Below are positions 5,854 through 25,686 of a DNA stretch of 32,000 nt, piece after piece. Source of the DNA: Candidatus Paracaedimonas acanthamoebae (GTDB lineage Bacteria; Pseudomonadota; Alphaproteobacteria; Caedimonadales; Caedimonadaceae). The stretch is taken from NCBI GenBank assembly GCA_000743035.1, contig CP008936.1, positions 660,001 to 692,000 on the forward strand, read 5' to 3'. Positions within the stretch are counted from its first letter, which is position 1; each line of letters begins with the position of its first letter. Both the position numbers and the translations under genes were made by a program. Under the pieces are notes generated by a model. It searched no databases and was not told the DNA's origin. It worked only from the letters and a program-made list of their open reading frames with translations.

Positions 5854-7278
5854 ATGAATTTAATAAAGGGATGGAAGATGTATAACTTGATTAAGACTAA
5901 AATAAGGCTCTTTATTTATGCTCTTGGTTTAATATTTATTGTAAATGATGCATATGCAATGAAAGAAATGACAATTGAGCAAAATGTTGCAGAAACAGTT
6001 CATCTTGAAGATCAAGTTGCTGAAATCTTTGTTGCAAATCCTGAAATTGCTGATGTTCAGCTCAATAATCCTAAAGTAGCTTATGTTTTTGGCAATAAAC
6101 CTGGCGTGACAACTGTATTTGCAACAAATAAAGATGGTAAGCTTATTTTGCAACTTCACTTGAAAGTCACGCATAATCTAACTCAACTTAATCAAACCTT
6201 GAAAGCGCTTTATCCTTATGAAGATATACAAACAATTTCAACACCAGGCGGTGTGGTTTTAAATGGAAAAGTATCGACACCAGCGACGGCAAAGAAGATT
6301 GTCGATGTTGCAGCAAAACATATTGGTTCAAAGGATAATGTGATCAACAACCTTCAGATTGGAACTAAAACCCAAGTTTTATTAAAAGTGAAAATTGCAG
6401 AAGTTAGAAGGTCTACACTCAATAAATTAAATATTAACTGGTCATCTGTTGTTAATTCTCCTGCTCATTTTACGTATGGTTTGATGACAGGTCGTGCCCC
6501 TATCGTAGGGGGTACTTTCCAACGTCATAATGGAATTCCCCAATTAGGAAGCATGGGAGCGGCATTTAATGATGGAGTCAGTAATTTTAGTGCCTTGATT
6601 GATGCCTTGGATCAAGAAGGGCTTGGTACAATTTTGGCAGAACCAAACTTAATCGCTGTCTCAGGTGAAACAGCGAGCTTTCTTGCAGGTGGTGAATTTC
6701 CTTTCCCAGTGCCTCAAGATACCAATATTACTATTGAGTTTAAACAGTTTGGTATCAGTCTTGCTTTTACTCCCACTGTTCTTTCATCAAACTTGATTAA
6801 TTTGCGTGTTCGTCCAGAAGTAAGTGAATTAGACGATAGCAATGCACTTGCTATACCGGTTGGGAATTCGTCAATTCCTGTTCGTGTTCCTGCTATAAAA
6901 ACAAGAAGAGCCGAAACTTCGGTCGAGCTTGGTAGTGGTCAAAGCTTAGCAATTGCTGGTCTTATTACAGCTAATACAGCAAATACTTATTCTCAGCTTC
7001 CAGGATTTGGTGATATCCCCGTTTTGGGGGCTCTTTTCAGATCAACTGATTTTCAACGGGAACAAAGTGAGCTTGTGATCATTGTGACGCCTTATATTGT
7101 GGAACCTAACTCAGATCCTAAAGCACTTAAATTACCGACAGATGGGGTAAAACATGCATCTAACCTAGAAACACTTTTTATGAAAAGGTTGAATCGTAAA
7201 AATGTAACACCAGATCAAGTTATTGAAGAAGCGCCTGATTATCGGCTCTTTGGTGTTGCTGGTTTTAATGTAGAGTAA
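5854..7278 (+). CDS. cpaC: secretin CpaC/RcpA
   Basis: BON/secretin-N region followed by a secretin core (ILAEPNLIAVSGETASFLAGGEFPFPV, IEFKQFGISLAFTP, GQSLAIAGLI, PGFGDIPVLGALFRS, ELVIIVTPYIV). An alternative start is the ATG at 5878. Confidence 0.9.
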   Translation: MNLIKGWKMYNLIKTKIRLFIYALGLIFIVNDAYAMKEMTIEQNVAETVHLEDQVAEIFVANPEIADVQLNNPKVAYVFGNKPGVTTVFATNKDGKLILQLHLKVTHNLTQLNQTLKALYPYEDIQTISTPGGVVLNGKVSTPATAKKIVDVAAKHIGSKDNVINNLQIGTKTQVLLKVKIAEVRRSTLNKLNINWSSVVNSPAHFTYGLMTGRAPIVGGTFQRHNGIPQLGSMGAAFNDGVSNFSALIDALDQEGLGTILAEPNLIAVSGETASFLAGGEFPFPVPQDTNITIEFKQFGISLAFTPTVLSSNLINLRVRPEVSELDDSNALAIPVGNSSIPVRVPAIKTRRAETSVELGSGQSLAIAGLITANTANTYSQLPGFGDIPVLGALFRSTDFQREQSELVIIVTPYIVEPNSDPKALKLPTDGVKHASNLETLFMKRLNRKNVTPDQVIEEAPDYRLFGVAGFNVE

Positions 7279-7288
7279 GAGGAATAAA

Positions 7289-7960
7289 ATGTTTAAACAA
7301 TTAGCAGCCCTACTATTAGCGTCTTCTACTATATTACCTGGGTGTTATCTTGAGCGCGACATAAATTACGTACGTCCTGAACAGCCTTTAGTAAAGAAAA
7401 AAACGGTTTCTCAGTTAATTCACTATAAATCAAAACAGAGAGTTAAGCTCACCACGAAAGAGGTTTTTGATCTCAAAGTTAAGGTTAAACAAGCTCAGAA
7501 AGCACAGGATATTCGAGTAAACATTATAGGTCATCACTTGAAGACAATGCGAGAAAATGCTCAAACAAAGGCTCGTATAAATCATTTAATTCGAGTTCTT
7601 AATCGATTAGGTGTTCCAAGTTCTTCAATCCAAATCTTTGATAAAATTAATGCGCCCAACGCCCAGTTAAAATGGGAACCTGATATGATAGCTATTGAAC
7701 TAGAGTGGTATGATCGCCATGCTATTCAATGTCCTGGATGGGATCAAGTGATGGATGGTCATGTTGCCCCCGAAGGAGAAGAAAATTTTGGCTGCACAAC
7801 GCAATCTAATTTAGCGCGAATGATTGTTGATCCAAAAGATTTGATAGTTGGTAAGAATTTAGAAAGTACTGATGGTCAATATAGTAGTATGAGTATTGAG
7901 CGGTACCAGACTGATAAAATGAAAACAATAAAAATTGAGAAGGTCGGCAAGGGGAGATAG
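7289..7960 (+). CDS. cpaD: pilus biogenesis lipoprotein CpaD
   Basis: Lipobox ILPGC. CpaD-like C-terminal region (CPGWD...FGCTTQSNLARMIVDPKDLIVG). Gene order matches cpaC-cpaD-cpaE. Confidence 0.75.
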   Translation: MFKQLAALLLASSTILPGCYLERDINYVRPEQPLVKKKTVSQLIHYKSKQRVKLTTKEVFDLKVKVKQAQKAQDIRVNIIGHHLKTMRENAQTKARINHLIRVLNRLGVPSSSIQIFDKINAPNAQLKWEPDMIAIELEWYDRHAIQCPGWDQVMDGHVAPEGEENFGCTTQSNLARMIVDPKDLIVGKNLESTDGQYSSMSIERYQTDKMKTIKIEKVGKGR

Positions 7961-7981
7961 AGGAGAAAATGAGGTTTTAAC

Positions 7982-9193
7982 GTGACTAAGGACAATAATT
8001 TGAATTCTTTACTATGTTTTTTATCTGATGATACTTCAATCGAAGCAGTTCAAGCGACATCCTTGAATAATTTAGGTATCACTCTTGAGGTCAAAAAAGG
8101 AGGCATAGAAGAGTGTCTAAAACATCTTAAAAGCAACCAATCACCAGATATCCTATTGATTGATATTAGTGAGTCAAAGCTTCCAATGACTGATATGATG
8201 AAGTTAGCAGAAGCTTGTGAGCCTGGTGTTGAAGTTATTACGGTTGGCAATCGTAATGAAGTTGGACTTTTTAGAGATTTAATGCGTTTGGGAATTAAAG
8301 ATTATCTTGTTAAGCCACTGACCTCAATGCACATTTTTAAAACACTAGAGCATATCCTTTTTGAAGAAAAAAAGGTATCTCAACCTGGAAGATTTAATAA
8401 ATCTGGTAAGTTAGTGACATTTATTGGTTCACACGGTGGAACTGGTGTATCAACTTTGGTCGCGAATAGCGCATGGGCGCTTGCTGAGAAGGAAAGTAAA
8501 AAAGTTGCTATTGTTGATTTAGATATTCAGTTAGGAATTATTCCTCACTTTTTTAATCTAGAGTCCTCGATAGGGCTACAAAAGCTTTTTGAGACTCCAG
8601 AGCGTATCGATGAAACTCTAATCAATAGATCAATGACACATGTCGGGCAAAATCTTATGATTTTAAGTTCTCAAACATCCTTACAAGATCAGCCAAACCT
8701 CAGCTTGGAAGCTATTGAATCAATAACTCAAGAATTGCTATCAAACGTCCACTTTGTTTTCGTAGATTTACCAAGAAATTTCTTGACACCTTCAAATACA
8801 TTTCTTTTGCAAAGATCAAATATTGTCGTCGTAACGACAGATTATTCTCTTATAGGGCTCAAAGAAACATCAAGGTTCTTAGAGCTTTGTAAAGATCGCC
8901 TTGTTCCGGATCAGGAAATCATTATTGTTGCAAACAAACTAGGTCAGTATAAAGCCGGAGAATTAACCCGTGAAATGTTTGAAGAAGCCCTGCAACACAA
9001 AGTTACACTTGAAATAGCTTTTGATCCTCTCAATCCTTTGGAAGCTTTAAGAGATGGTACTCCTCTCGTTAATAAAGCGAAAGGTTCGGCTTGTACGGGG
9101 GTTTTGGCAATAGTAAATCGTCTATTAGGAAAAGAAATAAAATCTAAAGAGTTTTCAGGGGTATTAAATTATCTTAAAAGTTTAAAATTTTAA
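7982..9193 (+). CDS. cpaE: CpaE/TadZ: receiver-like N-domain plus ParA/MinD-like ATPase domain with an atypical Walker A
   Basis: REC-like N-terminus (PDILLIDISE..., IKDYLVKPL) followed by TFIGSHGGTGVSTLVAN...VAIVDLD. The position is between cpaD and cpaF. Confidence 0.8.
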   Translation: MTKDNNLNSLLCFLSDDTSIEAVQATSLNNLGITLEVKKGGIEECLKHLKSNQSPDILLIDISESKLPMTDMMKLAEACEPGVEVITVGNRNEVGLFRDLMRLGIKDYLVKPLTSMHIFKTLEHILFEEKKVSQPGRFNKSGKLVTFIGSHGGTGVSTLVANSAWALAEKESKKVAIVDLDIQLGIIPHFFNLESSIGLQKLFETPERIDETLINRSMTHVGQNLMILSSQTSLQDQPNLSLEAIESITQELLSNVHFVFVDLPRNFLTPSNTFLLQRSNIVVVTTDYSLIGLKETSRFLELCKDRLVPDQEIIIVANKLGQYKAGELTREMFEEALQHKVTLEIAFDPLNPLEALRDGTPLVNKAKGSACTGVLAIVNRLLGKEIKSKEFSGVLNYLKSLKF

Positions 9194-20383: not shown

Positions 20384-20693
20384 GGTTAGAGTAATTCTGC
20401 TCAAATTACAGTAAAATTTAATTTTAAAACAAAGTACAAGGTTTAGGGTATTTCTTCTTTTTTAAAGAGAAATACGCTTAATTTTTAAATTTTACTCCAA
20501 TAAGCTTAAGAGTTTTTAATATATAGTATATTAAGGAGCTCAAAAAGATATCCCCTAAATTAAAAAGAAATTAGACATAAAGCTATATTGTAGCTTTGGA
20601 GGATATTCTGATAATTAATCAGAGGGCTTGTTTTGATAATGTTTATCCTTAATAAATCTAAATTTATAAGATAAAAGATTTTAGGGAGTAATA

Positions 20694-21206
20694 ATGGGGA
20701 AGACAAAAACCTATAAACCTTCGTCAAAGCAAGAAAAGAATAAAAAATGGGATATAATCAAAAATACTTACCCTTGGCGTTATGGGGTTGATTATAGATT
20801 ACATCCAGAAGAATATCGTGTGGGGAAGGGTGAGCAAGGAGTGCTGATTTGTGAGCCTTTTAAATCAGAAATACTTCCATTGTGGAGGTTTAGGACACCA
20901 GAAATTGCTCAAATAAGTAGCATTAAAATTTTTGAATTATTCAAAGAATATCTAAAAAAAGAAGAATTTGTTGGAGCAGATATGGCTCGAAAATTTTTAC
21001 AGATGGGCTATACAAGAGCTCGAAGATATGTGAATCATAATACAGGAAGAAAATACGATAAACTAACAGGAAAAGAACTTCCTTTAGGTTTATCTAACTT
21101 ATCAAAGGCTAAAAGTGCTCGAATTTTTTATAAAAAATGGAAAAAAGCTGAAACTGATTTTCAATATAAACAACTGAAAAAGAGTTGGAAAGAGAAATAT
21201 GGTTGA
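20694..21206 (+). CDS. DUF4385-family protein
   Basis: VDYRLHPEEYRVGKGEQGVLICEPFKSEILPLWRFRTPEIA...FVGADMARKFLQMGYTRARRYVNH matches my recollection of the DUF4385 signature. The RBS GGGAG lies upstream. Confidence 0.65.
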   Translation: MGKTKTYKPSSKQEKNKKWDIIKNTYPWRYGVDYRLHPEEYRVGKGEQGVLICEPFKSEILPLWRFRTPEIAQISSIKIFELFKEYLKKEEFVGADMARKFLQMGYTRARRYVNHNTGRKYDKLTGKELPLGLSNLSKAKSARIFYKKWKKAETDFQYKQLKKSWKEKYG

Positions 21207-21270
21207 AGTTTTTAATGCTAATTTTTAATATTATTAAAATAGATATCCTTAAATATAATGAATAAATTTA

Positions 21271-21279
21271 TTATAATAA
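21271..21279. repeat. 9-bp direct repeat TTATAATAA (putative target-site duplication, left copy)
   Basis: Directly abuts the left IR. An identical 9-mer abuts the right IR at 24757-24765. Confidence 0.6.
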
Positions 21280-21297
21280 CGCAGTGTGCAAGTTTTA
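21280..21297. repeat. IS terminal inverted repeat (transposase 3' side)
   Basis: CGCAGTGTGCAAGTTTTA. The reverse complement of 24739-24756 is CGCCGTGTGCAAGTTTTA, one mismatch. The repeat overlaps the transposase stop codon. Confidence 0.7.
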
Positions 21298-22191
21298 AGG
21301 CTTAATGATGGCCTGTAATTGTAACGGTTTGTTCGGGTTTTGGCTTAAATTAACAAAGAATGCCATAGTATGGGCCAAGATTTTCCGAACTACCTTGGCC
21401 GTTAAATGCCACAAGTCCTTAGCCCTGATTTTCTGAATATTAAACCGTTCCACAAATTGCCCTATCACTGTCTCTACCTTCCTCCTGACCGATTTGATTT
21501 TTTTGATGAACCACGAAGGTCGTGTCTCCTTCATGTTGTCCCTTAAGGGCGTTTCAAGGGATAAACCCAATCTCGTTAAAAACCCTTTAAGCTCTGGCCT
21601 GATAAGGCCCTTGTCTGCTACAAGGAGGCCCTTCAACCCTTCCACCAGTTCTGGCAAAACATCCCTCTCGTCAATATTGGCCGCCGCCATTGTAAAAGAA
21701 AGGGGGACGCCATGGGAACTCATCAACAGATGGCCTTTGAAGCCAAAATATTTTTCATCCTTGGCGGCGCAATAGCCCACAGATCCTATCCCCCTGAAAG
21801 GGTTCCTTTTTCTCCATGCCCTTTTGATGTGGCAAGTCGGTATAGGGAAGCCATCAAAAATAAACAAATCATCTTGGGCAGGGTAAAGGAGACTGACAAG
21901 CTTCTTTTGGATCCTCCCTTTCAGATACCATGTGTTCGCGCATTGGCGGATAAAGCTTGTCCGGCTCCCAAGCTTTGGAAACCAGTCCTGTCAATGCCAC
22001 TTGAAATATTCCCAGATTCTCTTGTCGCTTCCCAAGCCCAGATGCTCCCCTACGAGTTCCATGGTTATGACCTCGGCATCTGTGAGTTGGGGAGCTTCTC
22101 CACGGGTACGGATTGACGCTCCTCCTAATTCATCCCGAAGAAAATCATCGACAAGGCAAAAAACTGTTGTAATATACATCTCAAGGATCAT
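21295..22191 (-). pseudogene. IS982-family DDE transposase with an in-frame TGA (complement of 21991-21993)
   Basis: The 66-aa ORF (ITTVFCLVDDFLRDE...APQLTDAEVITMEL...EYFKWH*) and the 190-aa ORF are in the same frame. Reading through the single TGA gives ...WH*QDWFPKLGSRTSFIRQCANTWYLKGRIQKKLVSLLYPAQDDLFIFDGFPIPTCH...LLVADKGLIRPELKGFLTRLGLSLETPLRDNMKE. That is a roughly 298-codon IS982-like protein. Confidence 0.8.
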
Positions 22192-22346
22192 GGGTTCCTC
22201 CTTTGTTTATAGGGTGTTTTCACATATTCTTATAAACAAGGGATCCATGACCCTTCAACAGCTTAACACCCATTTGTCCTGTTTTTTCTGGTTACAAACG
22301 GAAAATGCTTCTGTTAATAGCCTATAGGCGCTCAATGCATTATCTT

Positions 22347-22360
22347 ACCTCCCCCCCCGC
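22347..22360. repeat. C-rich direct repeat ACCTCCCCCCCCGC (5' flank of the RT gene)
   Basis: The imperfect partner ACCTCCCCCGC lies at 23634-23644, 3' of the RT stop. Confidence 0.4.
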
Positions 22361-22368
22361 TCTTTACC

Positions 22369-23560
22369 ATGGATGACCTTGCCAGCGCCTATCAATGGAT
22401 CAGCAAGCTCCGGCGTGACTATTCCCCCAACTCCGACATCTGGAACTTCCGCCGGGACTGGAACACGATGAAAGCGGAAATGCTTGCCCAACTTAATGAC
22501 GGATCGTACCAGTTTGGGGTTGATCGACCGCCTGGAATTTGAGGATGCGACCATTTCCCTATGGTCTTCATGCGACATGGTTGCCCTCAAGCTTATCTCT
22601 CAATCCCTGGGGCGGCGGATGGCAAAATACATCCCTAAGTCCTGCTGCCACGTCAAAAACCATGGCGGACTTAAAAAGGCGGTCCGGCAAACTTATGAAG
22701 CTTTACACGAATATCAATATGTTATGCGTTCCGATGTTAAAAGTTATTACAGCTCAATCGATTTTAGCGTCCTAATGGAAATTATCGGGTCTTACGTCAC
22801 CCACCCCATCCTTTTAACCTTGGTTCGTAAAGCTTGCCAGCGAACCGAAACCTGTGGAGGAACCTTCTATGATTATGATACAAAAGGCATTCCAAAGGGC
22901 AGCCCGTTGTCCCCATTATTGGGCGCAGTCGCCTTGATTCTCCTTGATAAAGCCATGGGGAAAATCAAGGGCGTTTTTTACCAACGCTACATGGATGACT
23001 GGTGCGTGCTGACCAAAAGCAAGTCCGCCTTGCGTAAGGTCGTCAAGCGTACCCATGAAGTCATGAGGGACTTAAAGTTTCAGTTGCATCCCCTAAAGAC
23101 ATATATTGGCAAGATCAGCCGAGGCTTTAATTTTTTGGCCTATTACATGGATTATCAAAAAATCTTGCCCTCAAAAGAAACAATCCGGCGTTTCCACGAA
23201 CGCGCCACCGCTCTTTACGAGACCCCGCAATCCGGTCACAACCACACGCCACGCCGCTGTCGGCACACGCCAAAGATAGCTGCACCGCGCGACATATCGG
23301 AATATTTGGTTAACGAGGCAGCTCCCACCAATGCATACCTGGAAGGTGTGCTCCAGAATCTCTTGGCTTTGGCTGCACGATCACCGGACTCCCTTGCGGC
23401 GATGCGGAGGCGCTTCGACCTATGGAAAAGCTGGCTGAGATTCGGTATAGCCACAATCGGGGAGTTTGCAACATCCGTGCAAAATTTCCTGCCCTGCATG
23501 TTTTCATGTTTCATTCAGGGTTTCGCCGCGCCCGCCACGGGCTCGGCAGTTGTTGGCTAA
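22369..23560 (+). pseudogene. stand-alone reverse transcriptase (about 396 aa), class undetermined, interrupted by a 1-nt frameshift near 22519
   Basis: RT motifs occur in order: SDVKSYYSSIDF, GIPKGSPLSPLLGAV, YQRYMDDWCVL (YMDD at 22988-22999) and HPLKTYIGKISRGFNFLAYY. The N-terminal 50 codons (MDDLASAYQWISKLRRDYSPNSDIWNFRRDWNTMKAEMLAQLNDGSYQFG) are in frame 1 from the ATG at 22369. The rest is in frame 2 (LIDRLEFEDATISLW...). One extra G in TTTGGGGTT accounts for the shift. Confidence 0.85.
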
Positions 23561-23568
23561 GCTTTATT

Positions 23569-24384
23569 TCAGTTCACAAACGAAACATGAAATTTTCCAT
23601 GCGCCCGCGTCCGCGACACACCACCAGAATACCACCTCCCCCGCAACCCCGACGGCGCACTTTTTTTCCAATTTTCATATAAATCAATTTTAGATAAATT
23701 ATCCGTATTCTCCGTCGTCAAATAATCCATATCATGATCATCAGCAGCCCAACCCCCCCCCCATGTCCAGAACAACCCAACTGGTGCCTGTTCCTGTTTC
23801 CAGTTATCCATGATTGGCTGGAAGTGCGCCGCCGTGGTGCTGAGTTCCCTTTCAATCAAAAACCTTGGGGCAACCCATATCTCGACCTTAATGGCATTCT
23901 CTTCTTTCTTCCCCTTGCGGTACCCTGTGTTGATGCTCAGATATCTTCCCGCATCGTCACAGTTTGATAGGTTAAACGTCCCTTCGAGAGGGTTCGGCAA
24001 TGCCGAAATGAATAAGTTAATTCGTCCCACATCGTTATCGGGATTAGGCTTATAAATGAGTGTGTCTTTAAAAAAGCGCCAAAAATCATCCTTATTTTTC
24101 TCTCCTATATTAAAATATTCGCAAACCCATCTTTTCGCATTCTCTTTGATGGTTGCGTGCCAATCTTTACAAACAAGTGATAAGTTTTTACAAACCTCCT
24201 CGAAACTCTTGTTTTGTAGCCTATCTAACATAACAGATTCTTCTAGAATGCCATGAGTTAGTTCTGCTGGAAGCTGCGAGACGTAGCATTTTTCGCCCTC
24301 TTCATTTTCCGTTGCCTGGGTTGTCTGGCAGCCTAACGCCAGAAAGGCAAACAGCGCCCATAAAGATTTTCTAATAAAATTCAT
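23569..24384 (-). CDS. secreted protein or lipoprotein with an F-box-like motif; otherwise unknown function
   Basis: The RBS AAGGAG precedes the ATG. The signal peptide carries the lipobox LALGC. The motif SQLPAELTHGILEE...LSLVCKDWHATIKE resembles the F-box pattern LPxExLxxI...L.LVCKxW. The last roughly 30 codons are read from the GC-rich RT 3' flank. Confidence 0.5.
   Translation of the reverse strand: MNFIRKSLWALFAFLALGCQTTQATENEEGEKCYVSQLPAELTHGILEESVMLDRLQNKSFEEVCKNLSLVCKDWHATIKENAKRWVCEYFNIGEKNKDDFWRFFKDTLIYKPNPDNDVGRINLFISALPNPLEGTFNLSNCDDAGRYLSINTGYRKGKKEENAIKVEIWVAPRFLIERELSTTAAHFQPIMDNWKQEQAPVGLFWTWGGGWAADDHDMDYLTTENTDNLSKIDLYENWKKSAPSGLRGRWYSGGVSRTRAHGKFHVSFVN
23634..23644. repeat. 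C-rich direct repeat ACCTCCCCCGC (3' flank of the RT gene)
   Basis: Partner of 22347-22360. It lies in the GC-rich 130-nt stretch between the RT stop and a T7 run. Confidence 0.4.
23753..23762 (-). repeat. homopolymeric G10 tract (C10 on the + strand) inside the F-box-like CDS
   Basis: The coding strand reads TGG GGG GGG GGT, encoding WGGG in ...LFWTWGGGWAADD. Confidence 0.9.
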
Positions 24385-24738
24385 ACTAGTTCTCCTTAAA
24401 TACTTTTATATCATTTTTCCAAAAAACATCTTCAGCTTTTAGTTGATATTTGTGTCATTCATATATCTAAGAACTCAAGGATCAAAATACAAGACACTAC
24501 CCAACTTTTTTGCATTTCTATTTGAAAATTATTTTAATTTGTTGATACTTAATGATAATTATTATAATAACTTCAGCTCGAATTGCAAAAAAATTGATTA
24601 CGAGATGATCAATAGCACGATTTATGAAGGTCAAAGAATTCATAATGTTGCAGGAGATACTGCGCTTCCAATAAGTAAAAGGGCAACCTAGAACTTATCT
24701 TCTCTCATAGAGCGTGCAACCTCATCTACGGCATCCAA

Positions 24739-24756
24739 TAAAACTTGCACACGGCG
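24739..24756. repeat. IS terminal inverted repeat (distal copy)
   Basis: TAAAACTTGCACACGGCG, followed directly by TTATAATAA. Confidence 0.7.
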
Positions 24757-24765
24757 TTATAATAA
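24757..24765. repeat. 9-bp direct repeat TTATAATAA (putative target-site duplication, right copy)
   Basis: Identical to 21271-21279 and directly abuts the IR. Confidence 0.6.
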
Positions 24766-25244
24766 TATATTAATAAACATCAATATTTATAATATGATTA
24801 TTGAAAAAAACCTCTTTTAAATTTTTTAATGAGATATATTTTTGAACTTTTTATATAAATATTTGAGGCTATTAGAATGCTTAATTAAAAACTGTGCAGG
24901 CATTCCTGAATCATACCTATCATAATTTTTTAAAGTTTTTGTGCTTATAGTATGCTTTCTTTCTCTTCTTGCTATCATCTTATTATTTCCTAAATTTAAG
25001 TTTTATTTAATAGACAATAGGATGATCGCTAGTTACTTTACGATGTGAATTATTAGAAGTTTTTAACCAAGAATAAATATTTATAACTTAAATACTTGAA
25101 AAGTAATATTATTTTTATGAAAATTCATAAAGTTTAAAATCATAACAAATTATCGACTTTAACTCAAAGATTTCAATAGCTTAATTTTAAGATGTCTAGG
25201 ATGACTAAAGCAATTTTGCTAAACAACATTTAGAGGTAATAATT

Positions 25245-25376
25245 ATGGCAAAAGATAAAAAGAGTACACGCCATTCCCATGATACACAATATGGTAAGCA
25301 AGGATTTGCTTCATGCCTAAAGAACAAGCTAAAAAAATTGCCAGTAAAGGTTGAAAATCGCATGGAAAGCCCATGA
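25245..25376 (+). pseudogene. remnant of a KGG-repeat (YciG-like) general stress protein gene
   Basis: The RBS AGAGG precedes the ATG. MAKDKKSTRHSHDTQYGKQGFAS then shifts frame into MPKEQAKKIASKG*KSHGKP. The joined GFASMPKEQAKKIASKG(G)KSHG resembles the KGG stress-protein repeat but carries one frameshift and one TGA. Confidence 0.4.
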
Positions 25377-25686
25377 TAGAGATAACGATCGTTCTAGGTA
25401 ACTTATCAGCTTTAAGTTAACGACTTAAAGTACACTTCCCTACCTATTTAGATTCTTACTAAATCCTATAAATTTAAATTATAATATTAACTTCTTATGC
25501 TCTCTCAATTTCATCCTATTTTAAACTTAAAGAAAAATTTATAGCTAAATACCTACTATTGCTTTTTCTTTATTTCCGAGTTATTAAAAGTCAATACAAA
25601 GCAATTCTTATAATTATTAAAAAATTTTGAATTACTTGATTTAAGCCAAGAGTATACATTTAAAATATAAGGAGAAAGACCACTAA

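Follow-up and report, generated by a model that had tools for sequence, protein, structure and literature searches.

A 3.5-kb IS982-type unit of Candidatus Paracaedimonas acanthamoebae that encloses a UG4-like reverse transcriptase gene and a convergent F-box-like gene

The DNA analyzed here, a 32-kb stretch that we call the window and to which all positions without a contig name refer, belongs to Candidatus Paracaedimonas acanthamoebae, an Acanthamoeba endosymbiont of the order Holosporales. It contains two terminal inverted repeats (IRs) of the IS982 type that are abutted on their outer sides by the same short direct repeat. Between them lie a minus-strand transposase pseudogene, a plus-strand reverse transcriptase (RT) pseudogene and, converging on the latter, a gene for an F-box-like protein with an AT-rich region upstream of it (Table 1). 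Insertion sequences (ISs) of the IS982 family, such as ISAba9, ISAba825 and IS1187, are about 1.0-1.15 kb long and carry a single open reading frame. Here, the distance from IR to IR is 3,479 bp and three genes are enclosed.

Table 1. Positions of the IS982-type unit, its cargo and their component parts in the window
Feature	Position	Strand	Remarks
Left copy of the target-site duplication	21272..21278	none	TATAATA (7 bp); 9-bp version TTATAATAA at 21271-21279
Left terminal IR, ACGCAGTGTGCAAGTTTTA	21279..21297	-	adjoins the transposase stop codon; present in L001, L122-L130 and genome loci
IS982-family DDE transposase pseudogene	21295..22191	-	298 residues; in-frame TGA at 21991-21993
Promoter-distal part of the IS leader	22192..22267	-	includes an inverted repeat (~22186-22253) over ribosome-binding site and ATG
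Cargo in the IS leader	22268..24720	none	2,453 bp; flanked by AAC at 22265-22267 and 24718-24720
Left end of the cargo	22268..22345	+	78 bp upstream of the RT; without relative in the fetched loci
UG4-class RT pseudogene	22369..23560	+	~397 aa once repaired; YMDD intact; +1 frameshift
Structured element across both stop codons	23491..23592	none	hairpins H1 and H2 plus loop pairing; 24 loci
H1	23491-23500 paired with 23512-23521	none	hairpin in the last RT codons
H2	23525-23547	none	GC-rich hairpin; stem differs by clade, at least 5 different stems
Cdom and hypervariable tail	23569..24084	-	conserved C-terminal domain of the convergent gene
N-terminal part of the convergent gene	24085..24384	-	signal-peptide-like start; F-box-like residues 36-81 (24142-24279)
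AT-rich region upstream of the F-box/Cdom gene	24385..24720	-	336 bp, 30% GC; 24385-24654 in L069 at 96-97%
IRL-proximal 37 bp of the IS	24721..24757	-	leader start and terminal IR (24739-24757)
Right copy of the target-site duplication	24758..24764	none	TATAATA; 9-bp version at 24757-24765

The left IR, CGCAGTGTGCAAGTTTTA at 21280-21297, returns as its reverse complement with one mismatch at 24739-24756. An earlier annotation made from the letters of this DNA, subsequently referred to as the original prediction, had reported these 18-bp terminal repeats, and they proved to be the only two matches to CGCAGTGTGCAAGTTTTA in the window at up to three mismatches, where 0.03 would be expected by chance. 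The prediction had also described 9-bp direct repeats around the unit. The 9-mer TTATAATAA does adjoin the outer side of both IRs; it occurs three times in the whole window (at 21271, 24562 and 24757), and in AT-rich DNA such as that of this region, one given position would show it by chance with a probability of about 1.8e-4. The duplication itself, however, is probably only the 7 bp TATAATA, with the element best drawn as 21279-24757, since the IS ends of complete relatives read AC...GT and their duplications measure 6-9 bp. As the terminal A/T is ambiguous, a 9-bp duplication may be the alternative. Both versions fall within the 3-9 bp of IS982-type target duplications, and the two ends, ACGCAGTGTGCAAGTTTTA and ACGCCGTGTGCAAGTTTTA, have the start (5'-AC) and the length (~18-35 bp) of IS982-type IRs. 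The left end also harbors an outward-facing promoter-like site (10/12; 21270-21298, minus strand) whose -35 hexamer TTAAAA lies in the IS end and whose -10 hexamer TATAAT lies in the duplicated target; it is directed antisense into a DUF4385 gene.

The transposase, predicted before as an IS982-type enzyme on the minus strand with an in-frame TGA and a start codon far from the right IR, matches the Pfam model DDE_Tnp_1_3 (3.4e-19). It has 1,317 homologues, with full-length matches at 53-82% identity, and those that bear a name are called IS982 family transposase, for example P0058 from Ca. Hamiltonella defensa. The Pfam match and the homologue names together assign it to the IS982 lineage of DDE transposases. 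The TGA is the only in-frame stop, and the relatives have TGG (Trp) at this position. From the start codon to the right IR, we measured 2,548 bp.

The limits of the insertion could be fixed by means of cargo-free relatives. The nearest relative of the transposase (P0001, 82% amino acid identity) is encoded on the 1,055-bp Logan contig L001, which holds a complete element of 1,023 bp with its second IR 110 nt upstream of the transposase ATG. Another 14 complete relatives in genome loci measure 991-1018 bp, have duplications of 6-9 bp and end in ACGC...GCGT or AGGC...GCCT. In a BLASTN comparison, window positions 21279-22259 match L001 positions 1053-72, while the other 41 nt of L001, which comprise the IRL (the IR at the leader end, on the right in the window) and the first part of the leader, have their counterpart in window 24721-24757. 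The leader match to L001 covers 22192-22267, is broken there and is resumed at 24721-24756. Deleting 22268-24720 produces a sequence that can be aligned throughout with three cargo-free leaders, whose transposases are 82%, 72% and 69% identical to that of the window, and the length returns to the range typical of the family: the IS proper consists of 21279-22267 and 24721-24757, together 1,026 bp, and is interrupted 37 bp inside its IRL end. The leader of the cargo-free relatives continues into the right IR, which is thereby identified as the genuine counterpart of the left one. This comparison of sequences argues strongly for one IS982-family IS with an internal insertion, a reading in which we are highly confident. 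The part of the leader that remained with the transposase forms a hairpin with the arms TTGTTTATA...TATAAACAA, which are kept in the relatives; the same hairpin registers as spurious miRNA matches and as a terminator-like site.

The original prediction, in which an IS either carries an RT gene and an F-box-like gene or was invaded by them, is thus borne out by a leader homology that breaks off at 22267 and resumes at 24721, and the search for cargo-free relatives that it had recommended did yield copies (991-1023 bp) that define the junctions. These junctions differ from the ones it had proposed. Cargo-free relatives place the cargo at 22268-24720, not between breakpoints at 22347 and 24694, and the length without cargo is 1,026 bp instead of about 1.12 kb. 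We rejected the breakpoints at the heptamer TTATCTT, as IS homology stops at 22267 and restarts at 24721. TTATCTT is indeed present at 22340 and 24695, but it is frequent in the window (8 occurrences per strand) and is found neither at 22267/22268 nor at 24720/24721. A second IR near 22250-22340, which would have indicated a shorter IS, was seen in no relative; nor is the right IR an independent solo IR, with the leader continuing from 24721. The suggestion that the unit is probably immobile now appears reasonable in view of the TGA in the transposase, the lack of homologues above 82% identity among 5.8 billion protein clusters and the separation of the transposase gene from the IRL-proximal part of its leader.

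In the cargo itself, we found no terminal inverted repeats, no transposase of its own and no recognizable ends, only the 3-bp repeat AAC. Its outermost portions (22268-22345, 78 bp, and 24655-24720, 66 bp) gave no significant match in L001-L131 or in the rest of the window. The part from 22715 to 24654, however, is contiguous in an independent Logan contig, L069, in which two other elements delimit it. An IS with a DUF772 transposase (L069 1-1079) truncates the RT at the equivalent of window position 22715, and an IS6-like element (L069 2955-3261) cuts the AT-rich region at the equivalent of 24654.

The plus-strand RT of the original prediction was readily recognized by the Pfam model RVT_1 (1.4e-16). 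Its frame is broken by an extra T near 22524; after repair, the whole protein can be aligned with a well-populated family, at identities of 49-85%. On the homologue P0121, which is 85% identical and was used for this scoring, the PADLOC model RT_UG4 reached 4.6e-86 compared to 4.6e-36 for the next class, which places the RT in the UG4 class. A search of 5.8 billion protein clusters, which include the annotated proteins of this genome, revealed no RT with more than 85% identity and no transposase with more than 82% identity. Two short sequence features of the RT region may be mentioned here. The 11-nt repeat CCGCTCTTTAC (22357 and 23208) was considered as an element boundary and discarded: it is limited to the nearest RT subgroup, and the coding (LFT vs LYE) accounts for it. 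Just upstream of the RT start, there is a C homopolymer of ~8 nt (22351-22358), and another of ~10 nt lies in the variable region of the convergent gene (~23755-23765). The lengths of these homopolymers differ among relatives, which may reflect slipped-strand variation or sequencing errors.

The convergent gene (23569-24384) encodes 271 aa, and its product is 100% identical to the hypothetical protein IM40_03570. As had been predicted, it is F-box-like, but the match of the window protein itself is weak (E 0.034, below the Pfam cut-off). F-box-like matches are found in 14 of 46 family members, the best at 5e-7, so that the assignment is supported at the family level. The AT-rich stretch upstream, expected at about 300 bp, proved to be slightly longer (Table 1) and contains a promoter-like site (24589 to 24561, 10/12, -35 TTGCAA, -10 TATAAT) directed at the F-box gene.

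The last ~170 residues of the protein form a conserved domain, which we call Cdom. A Cdom profile retrieved 732 cluster representatives among 1.84 billion proteins. In these proteins, which range from 143 to 1,826 aa, the domain is nearly always C-terminal, and the domains that precede it include F-box, U-box, Sel1, TIR, trypsin, class-3 lipase, ankyrin, LRR and dynamin-like GTPase, a repertoire of partners that is typical of effectors aimed at eukaryotic hosts. The AlphaFold model has a pLDDT of ~90-95 over Cdom; Foldseek gave nothing similar to it in PDB or BFVD, nor does any model of Pfam, NCBIfam or PADLOC match the family. We found no Cdom gene in the PLSDB plasmids and only one contig with Cdom, without an RT nearby, in IMG/VR.

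The association of the RT with Cdom is close. Counting as informative those metagenome RT loci whose downstream sequence extends for 500 nt or more, 23 of 25 have a convergent Cdom gene whose end lies no more than 400 nt from the RT. The reverse association is weaker, as shown by the Cdom genes in L132 (Ca. Odyssella acanthamoebae CP008941.1, 8948-9200) and L134 (5814-6107), which keep only the junction element described below and the last 90-120 RT codons. The endpoint of the RT deletion in L134 coincides with the 11-nt direct repeat CCGCTCTTTAC, which may explain this deletion but leaves the RT remnants of L132 and L133 unaccounted for. In L133, a group II intron (6352-8200, GTGCG start, 443-aa RT) follows directly after the Cdom stop codon and stands between the Cdom gene and what remains of a UG4-like RT. 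A different setting is given by L079 (2437-7688), a plasmid-like contig on which RepA (RPA), iteron-like repeats, BrnT/BrnA, a UG4-like RT and a trypsin-Cdom gene are found together, with a second Cdom gene at 113-505.

Where the RT and the Cdom gene meet, a structured element spans both stop codons. In the window, the loop of its first hairpin, TTTCATGTT (23502-23510), is complementary to AACATGAAA (23584-23592); across loci, the H1 loop UUUCAUGUU is complementary to AACAUGAAA ~75 nt downstream, within the last Cdom codons. Over the 24 loci, 82.7% of the cells of H1 and the loop pairing are paired, compared to 34-50% when the partners are slid against each other, and double-change cells number 39 vs 7-24 in these slid controls. 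None of 500 shuffles reached the covariation score. The clade of L075, L086, L094 and L113 displays two adjacent compensatory changes in the loop pairing, which probably represent a single evolutionary event. For 10 of 11 sequences folded singly, z values lay between about -1.6 and -5.4. The element matched no Rfam family. Neither G-U/A-C counts (17 vs 16 and 10 vs 10) nor folding energies, which are alike for the two strands, assign the element to a strand; therefore, it may act at the DNA level or in transcription termination. The conserved nucleotides at the end of Cdom are read in two frames among the homologues L068-L114 (KFHVxFVN and FxFRL, each followed by the stop codon), which suggests a constraint on the nucleotides themselves.

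The effector gene is most variable at its RT-proximal end. Between close relatives, the RTs are 96-100% (window vs L069) and 96-99% (L079 vs L081) identical, and immediately past the RT stop codon, in the Cdom tail (window 23560-23960 in the comparison with L069), identity falls to 41-79% with changes in length. It is partly regained in the Cdom core, while the RT and other parts are at 93-100%. Near-identical RTs accompany different effector genes, and segments of the window Cdom resemble different homologues. Since this pattern is mosaic, exchange of cassettes by recombination is favored over templated mutagenesis as the likely source of the variable tail. We put forward as a hypothesis, and one that we regard as rather improbable, that the cargo is a functional unit of a novel type, in which the UG4-like RT acts through the junction RNA on the 3' end of the effector gene, for example by diversifying or exchanging the tail or Cdom cassette of effectors directed at eukaryotes. 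If this were true, the IS982 composite would be a vehicle that moves an RT-effector cassette between amoeba symbionts.

How did the composite arise? Base composition differs among its parts: GC is 36% in the window outside the element, 46% in the IS, 51% in the RT, 47% in Cdom, 39% in the N-terminal domain and 30% in the promoter region. Given that the cargo lacks ends of its own and is flanked only by the 3-bp AAC repeat, it probably entered an IS copy by illegitimate recombination. This would have happened elsewhere, and the 3.48-kb composite would then have transposed as a unit into an AT-rich intergenic site between the DUF4385 gene and a histidine-kinase gene, thereby creating the duplication. 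Decay would have followed, when the transposase codon TGG became TGA and the RT acquired a +1 frameshift, and would have left the unit immobile. Entry elsewhere followed by transposition as a unit is the cheapest sequence of events, because the IS and the cargo both exceed the host in GC and an intact copy is on record for neither of them. The account as a whole, with IS structure, unit transposition and decay, seems to us evenly balanced between right and wrong, and so does its central step, the movement of the composite as a unit. The unit appears to be dead, and nothing points to an intact helper copy.

Several observations weigh against a composite that moved. Only one copy was examined. 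The cargo is absent from all 77 loci (521 kb) with IS982 relatives, and this IS982 lineage from all 52 RT loci (the sole transposase match, in L116, is 28% identical), so that the association of IS and cargo looks like a one-off. The host-like GC (30-39%) of the N-terminal half of the effector and of its promoter fits a long residence in the lineage. The cargo also splits the transposase from the IRL-proximal leader, which may reduce transposition in cis. Finally, an identical duplication is expected if the cargo came after the IS.

It is therefore quite conceivable that the 1.03-kb IS landed first and made the duplication, and that the RT-effector segment entered the leader only later and at the present locus, through illegitimate recombination at AAC microhomology, in which case the composite never moved. 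We consider this order of events a serious but somewhat doubtful possibility. The duplication is equally compatible with it, as are a cargo without transposon-like ends and with only a 3-bp flanking repeat, the absence of the IS-cargo association from every other locus, and the host-like GC of the promoter and N-terminal parts of the cargo. Invasions of this kind do happen: in L002, a related IS982-family element (72% identity), an IS200/IS605-type tnpA element is nested at 1438-2070, between the IRL and the transposase ATG, which indicates that the leader tolerates insertions. Nested IS200/IS605-type elements are likewise present in L003 and L004, and L002 also contains a MITE-like (miniature inverted-repeat transposable element) sequence of ~85 bp with IS982-type IRs at 900-990. 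On the other hand, an invasion at the present site would require that GC-rich foreign DNA reached one 1-kb target twice, independently, in a genome of 1.72 Mb, as well as a route of integration for a non-mobile segment, and the records of this genome show neither the cargo nor its genes a second time. Since a single arrival of foreign DNA suffices if the composite came as a unit, instead of two at the same 1-kb target, we lean slightly towards transposition of the unit.

The cargo might also be a retroelement in its own right (group II intron, retron, diversity-generating retroelement (DGR) or another RT-driven element) that actively targeted the IS leader. It does encode an RT, at whose 3' end there is a conserved RNA-like structure, and the group II intron directly after the Cdom stop codon in L133 indicates that the neighborhood attracts retroelements. 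However, a search of 20500-25500 against Rfam (E<=1), including the group II intron models, gave no match save two spurious miRNA matches that stem from the leader hairpin, and the NCBIfam scores for group II introns (TIGR04416, 97 bits vs a cut-off of 300) and retron RTs stay far below the cut-offs. Only ~100 nt precede the RT, which has no maturase domain. A group II intron was rejected on the lack of an Rfam match and a maturase domain together with the low NCBIfam score, and a retron on the lack of an Rfam match and the low scores of the retron RT models. A DGR was rejected as there is no pair of template and variable repeats (TR/VR); no repeat of more than 17 nt links the variable region to other parts of the module. 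Moreover, one gene of the module runs in the opposite direction and has a promoter to itself, the ends of the module resemble nothing else, and in other loci it is found in ordinary chromosomal or plasmid contexts. A retroelement that inserted by its own RT is thus very unlikely.

The least probable reading, which we find barely credible, joins two unrelated elements, an IS cut short near 22250-22340 and a solo IR or MITE of separate origin (24562-24765) with its own TTATAATAA duplication: a third TTATAATAA copy at 24562-24570 and a 13-nt sequence, TTATTATAATAAC, that is identical at 21268 and 24559 would fit, but the supposed MITE has no IR at its left end (24571 onward), the 37 bp inside the right IR pick up the IS leader exactly where 22267 breaks off, 24385-24654 is contiguous with the F-box gene at 96-97% identity in the independent contig L069, and the internal TTATAATAA, which overlaps the TATAAT -10 hexamer of the promoter-like site for the F-box gene, reads TTTTTATAACAAC (also given as TTTATAACA) in that related contig. 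We rejected a MITE or solo IR at 24562-24765 on these grounds; the region is ancestral upstream DNA of the F-box gene in L069. Homology between the left flank and the AT-rich region of the cargo, which would point to a duplicated target, was rejected as well: their similarity is at chance level, with the best local alignment equaled by 88 of 1000 shuffles.

To our knowledge, this would be the first IS982-family element with passenger genes between its ends. It can be described as a nested insertion and, possibly, as a transporter IS in a family not known for passengers; being a single decayed copy, it offers a lead rather than a demonstrated transporter IS. The cargo pair appears more valuable than the IS, since it combines a UG4-like RT with a near-obligate convergent partner to which it is joined by a covarying structured element. 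The C-terminal domain of this partner defines a large unannotated effector-associated family (~730 cluster representatives). Nowhere does the locus vary more than at the end of the effector gene that faces the RT, and this, together with the junction element and the constant partner gene, provides a testable entry to the role of UG4-type RTs, which are among the few bacterial RT classes without an assigned function and without enrichment in defense islands.

With the IS982 family, the unit shares the DDE_Tnp_1_3 enzyme, ~19-bp IRs that start with AC, a stop codon overlapping one IR, a core of ~1 kb, an AT-rich target duplication of 6-9 bp and a leader hairpin over the ribosome-binding site. 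It differs from its relatives of 991-1023 bp in that its IRs stand 3,479 bp apart, with 2,453 bp of unrelated DNA in the leader. We know of no transporter IS from the IS982 family in ISfinder. The transporter IS (tIS), an IS derivative with passenger genes between its IRs (PMC9330008), resembles the unit in having passengers within one pair of IS ends and a single target duplication, but here the passengers are an RT and an effector-like gene. Nested insertions are known in the family too, such as ISAba1 in the IS982-family element ISAba9 (PMC9330008). Like these, the unit carries foreign DNA between the IRL end and the transposase start; the nested ISAba1 and IS200/IS605 elements are mobile elements, whereas the cargo of the window is without IRs, transposase and IS200-type hairpin ends.

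UG4 RTs have no known function and are not enriched in defense islands (PMC9226505, PMC8934634). They were reported on plasmids, some of them beside fimbrial genes (PMC9226505, Mestre et al. 2022; PMC8934634, Sharifi and Ye 2022). The RT described here agrees with the class in being a free-standing protein of ~400 aa without a fused known domain, which in some loci (L079) resides on plasmid-like DNA. The plasmid-borne UG4 RTs of Salmonella and Serratia are only ~30% identical to it, and in place of the fimbrial neighbors of one UG4 subgroup, which are not a strict hallmark of the class, it has Cdom effector-like genes as neighbors. The convergent Cdom gene (23 of 25 loci) and the structured element at the RT 3' end set it apart from the rest of the class.

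Several features separate the cargo from DGRs. There is no TR/VR pair and no Avd, the orientation is convergent, and the RT belongs to UG4; DGR substitutions are adenine-specific, whereas the changes seen here are mosaic and recombination-like and include changes in length. Parts of the layout are shared. In both systems, an RT lies beside the 3' end of a target-like gene whose RT-proximal end is hypervariable while the rest is conserved, and a conserved structured element occupies the junction between the two.

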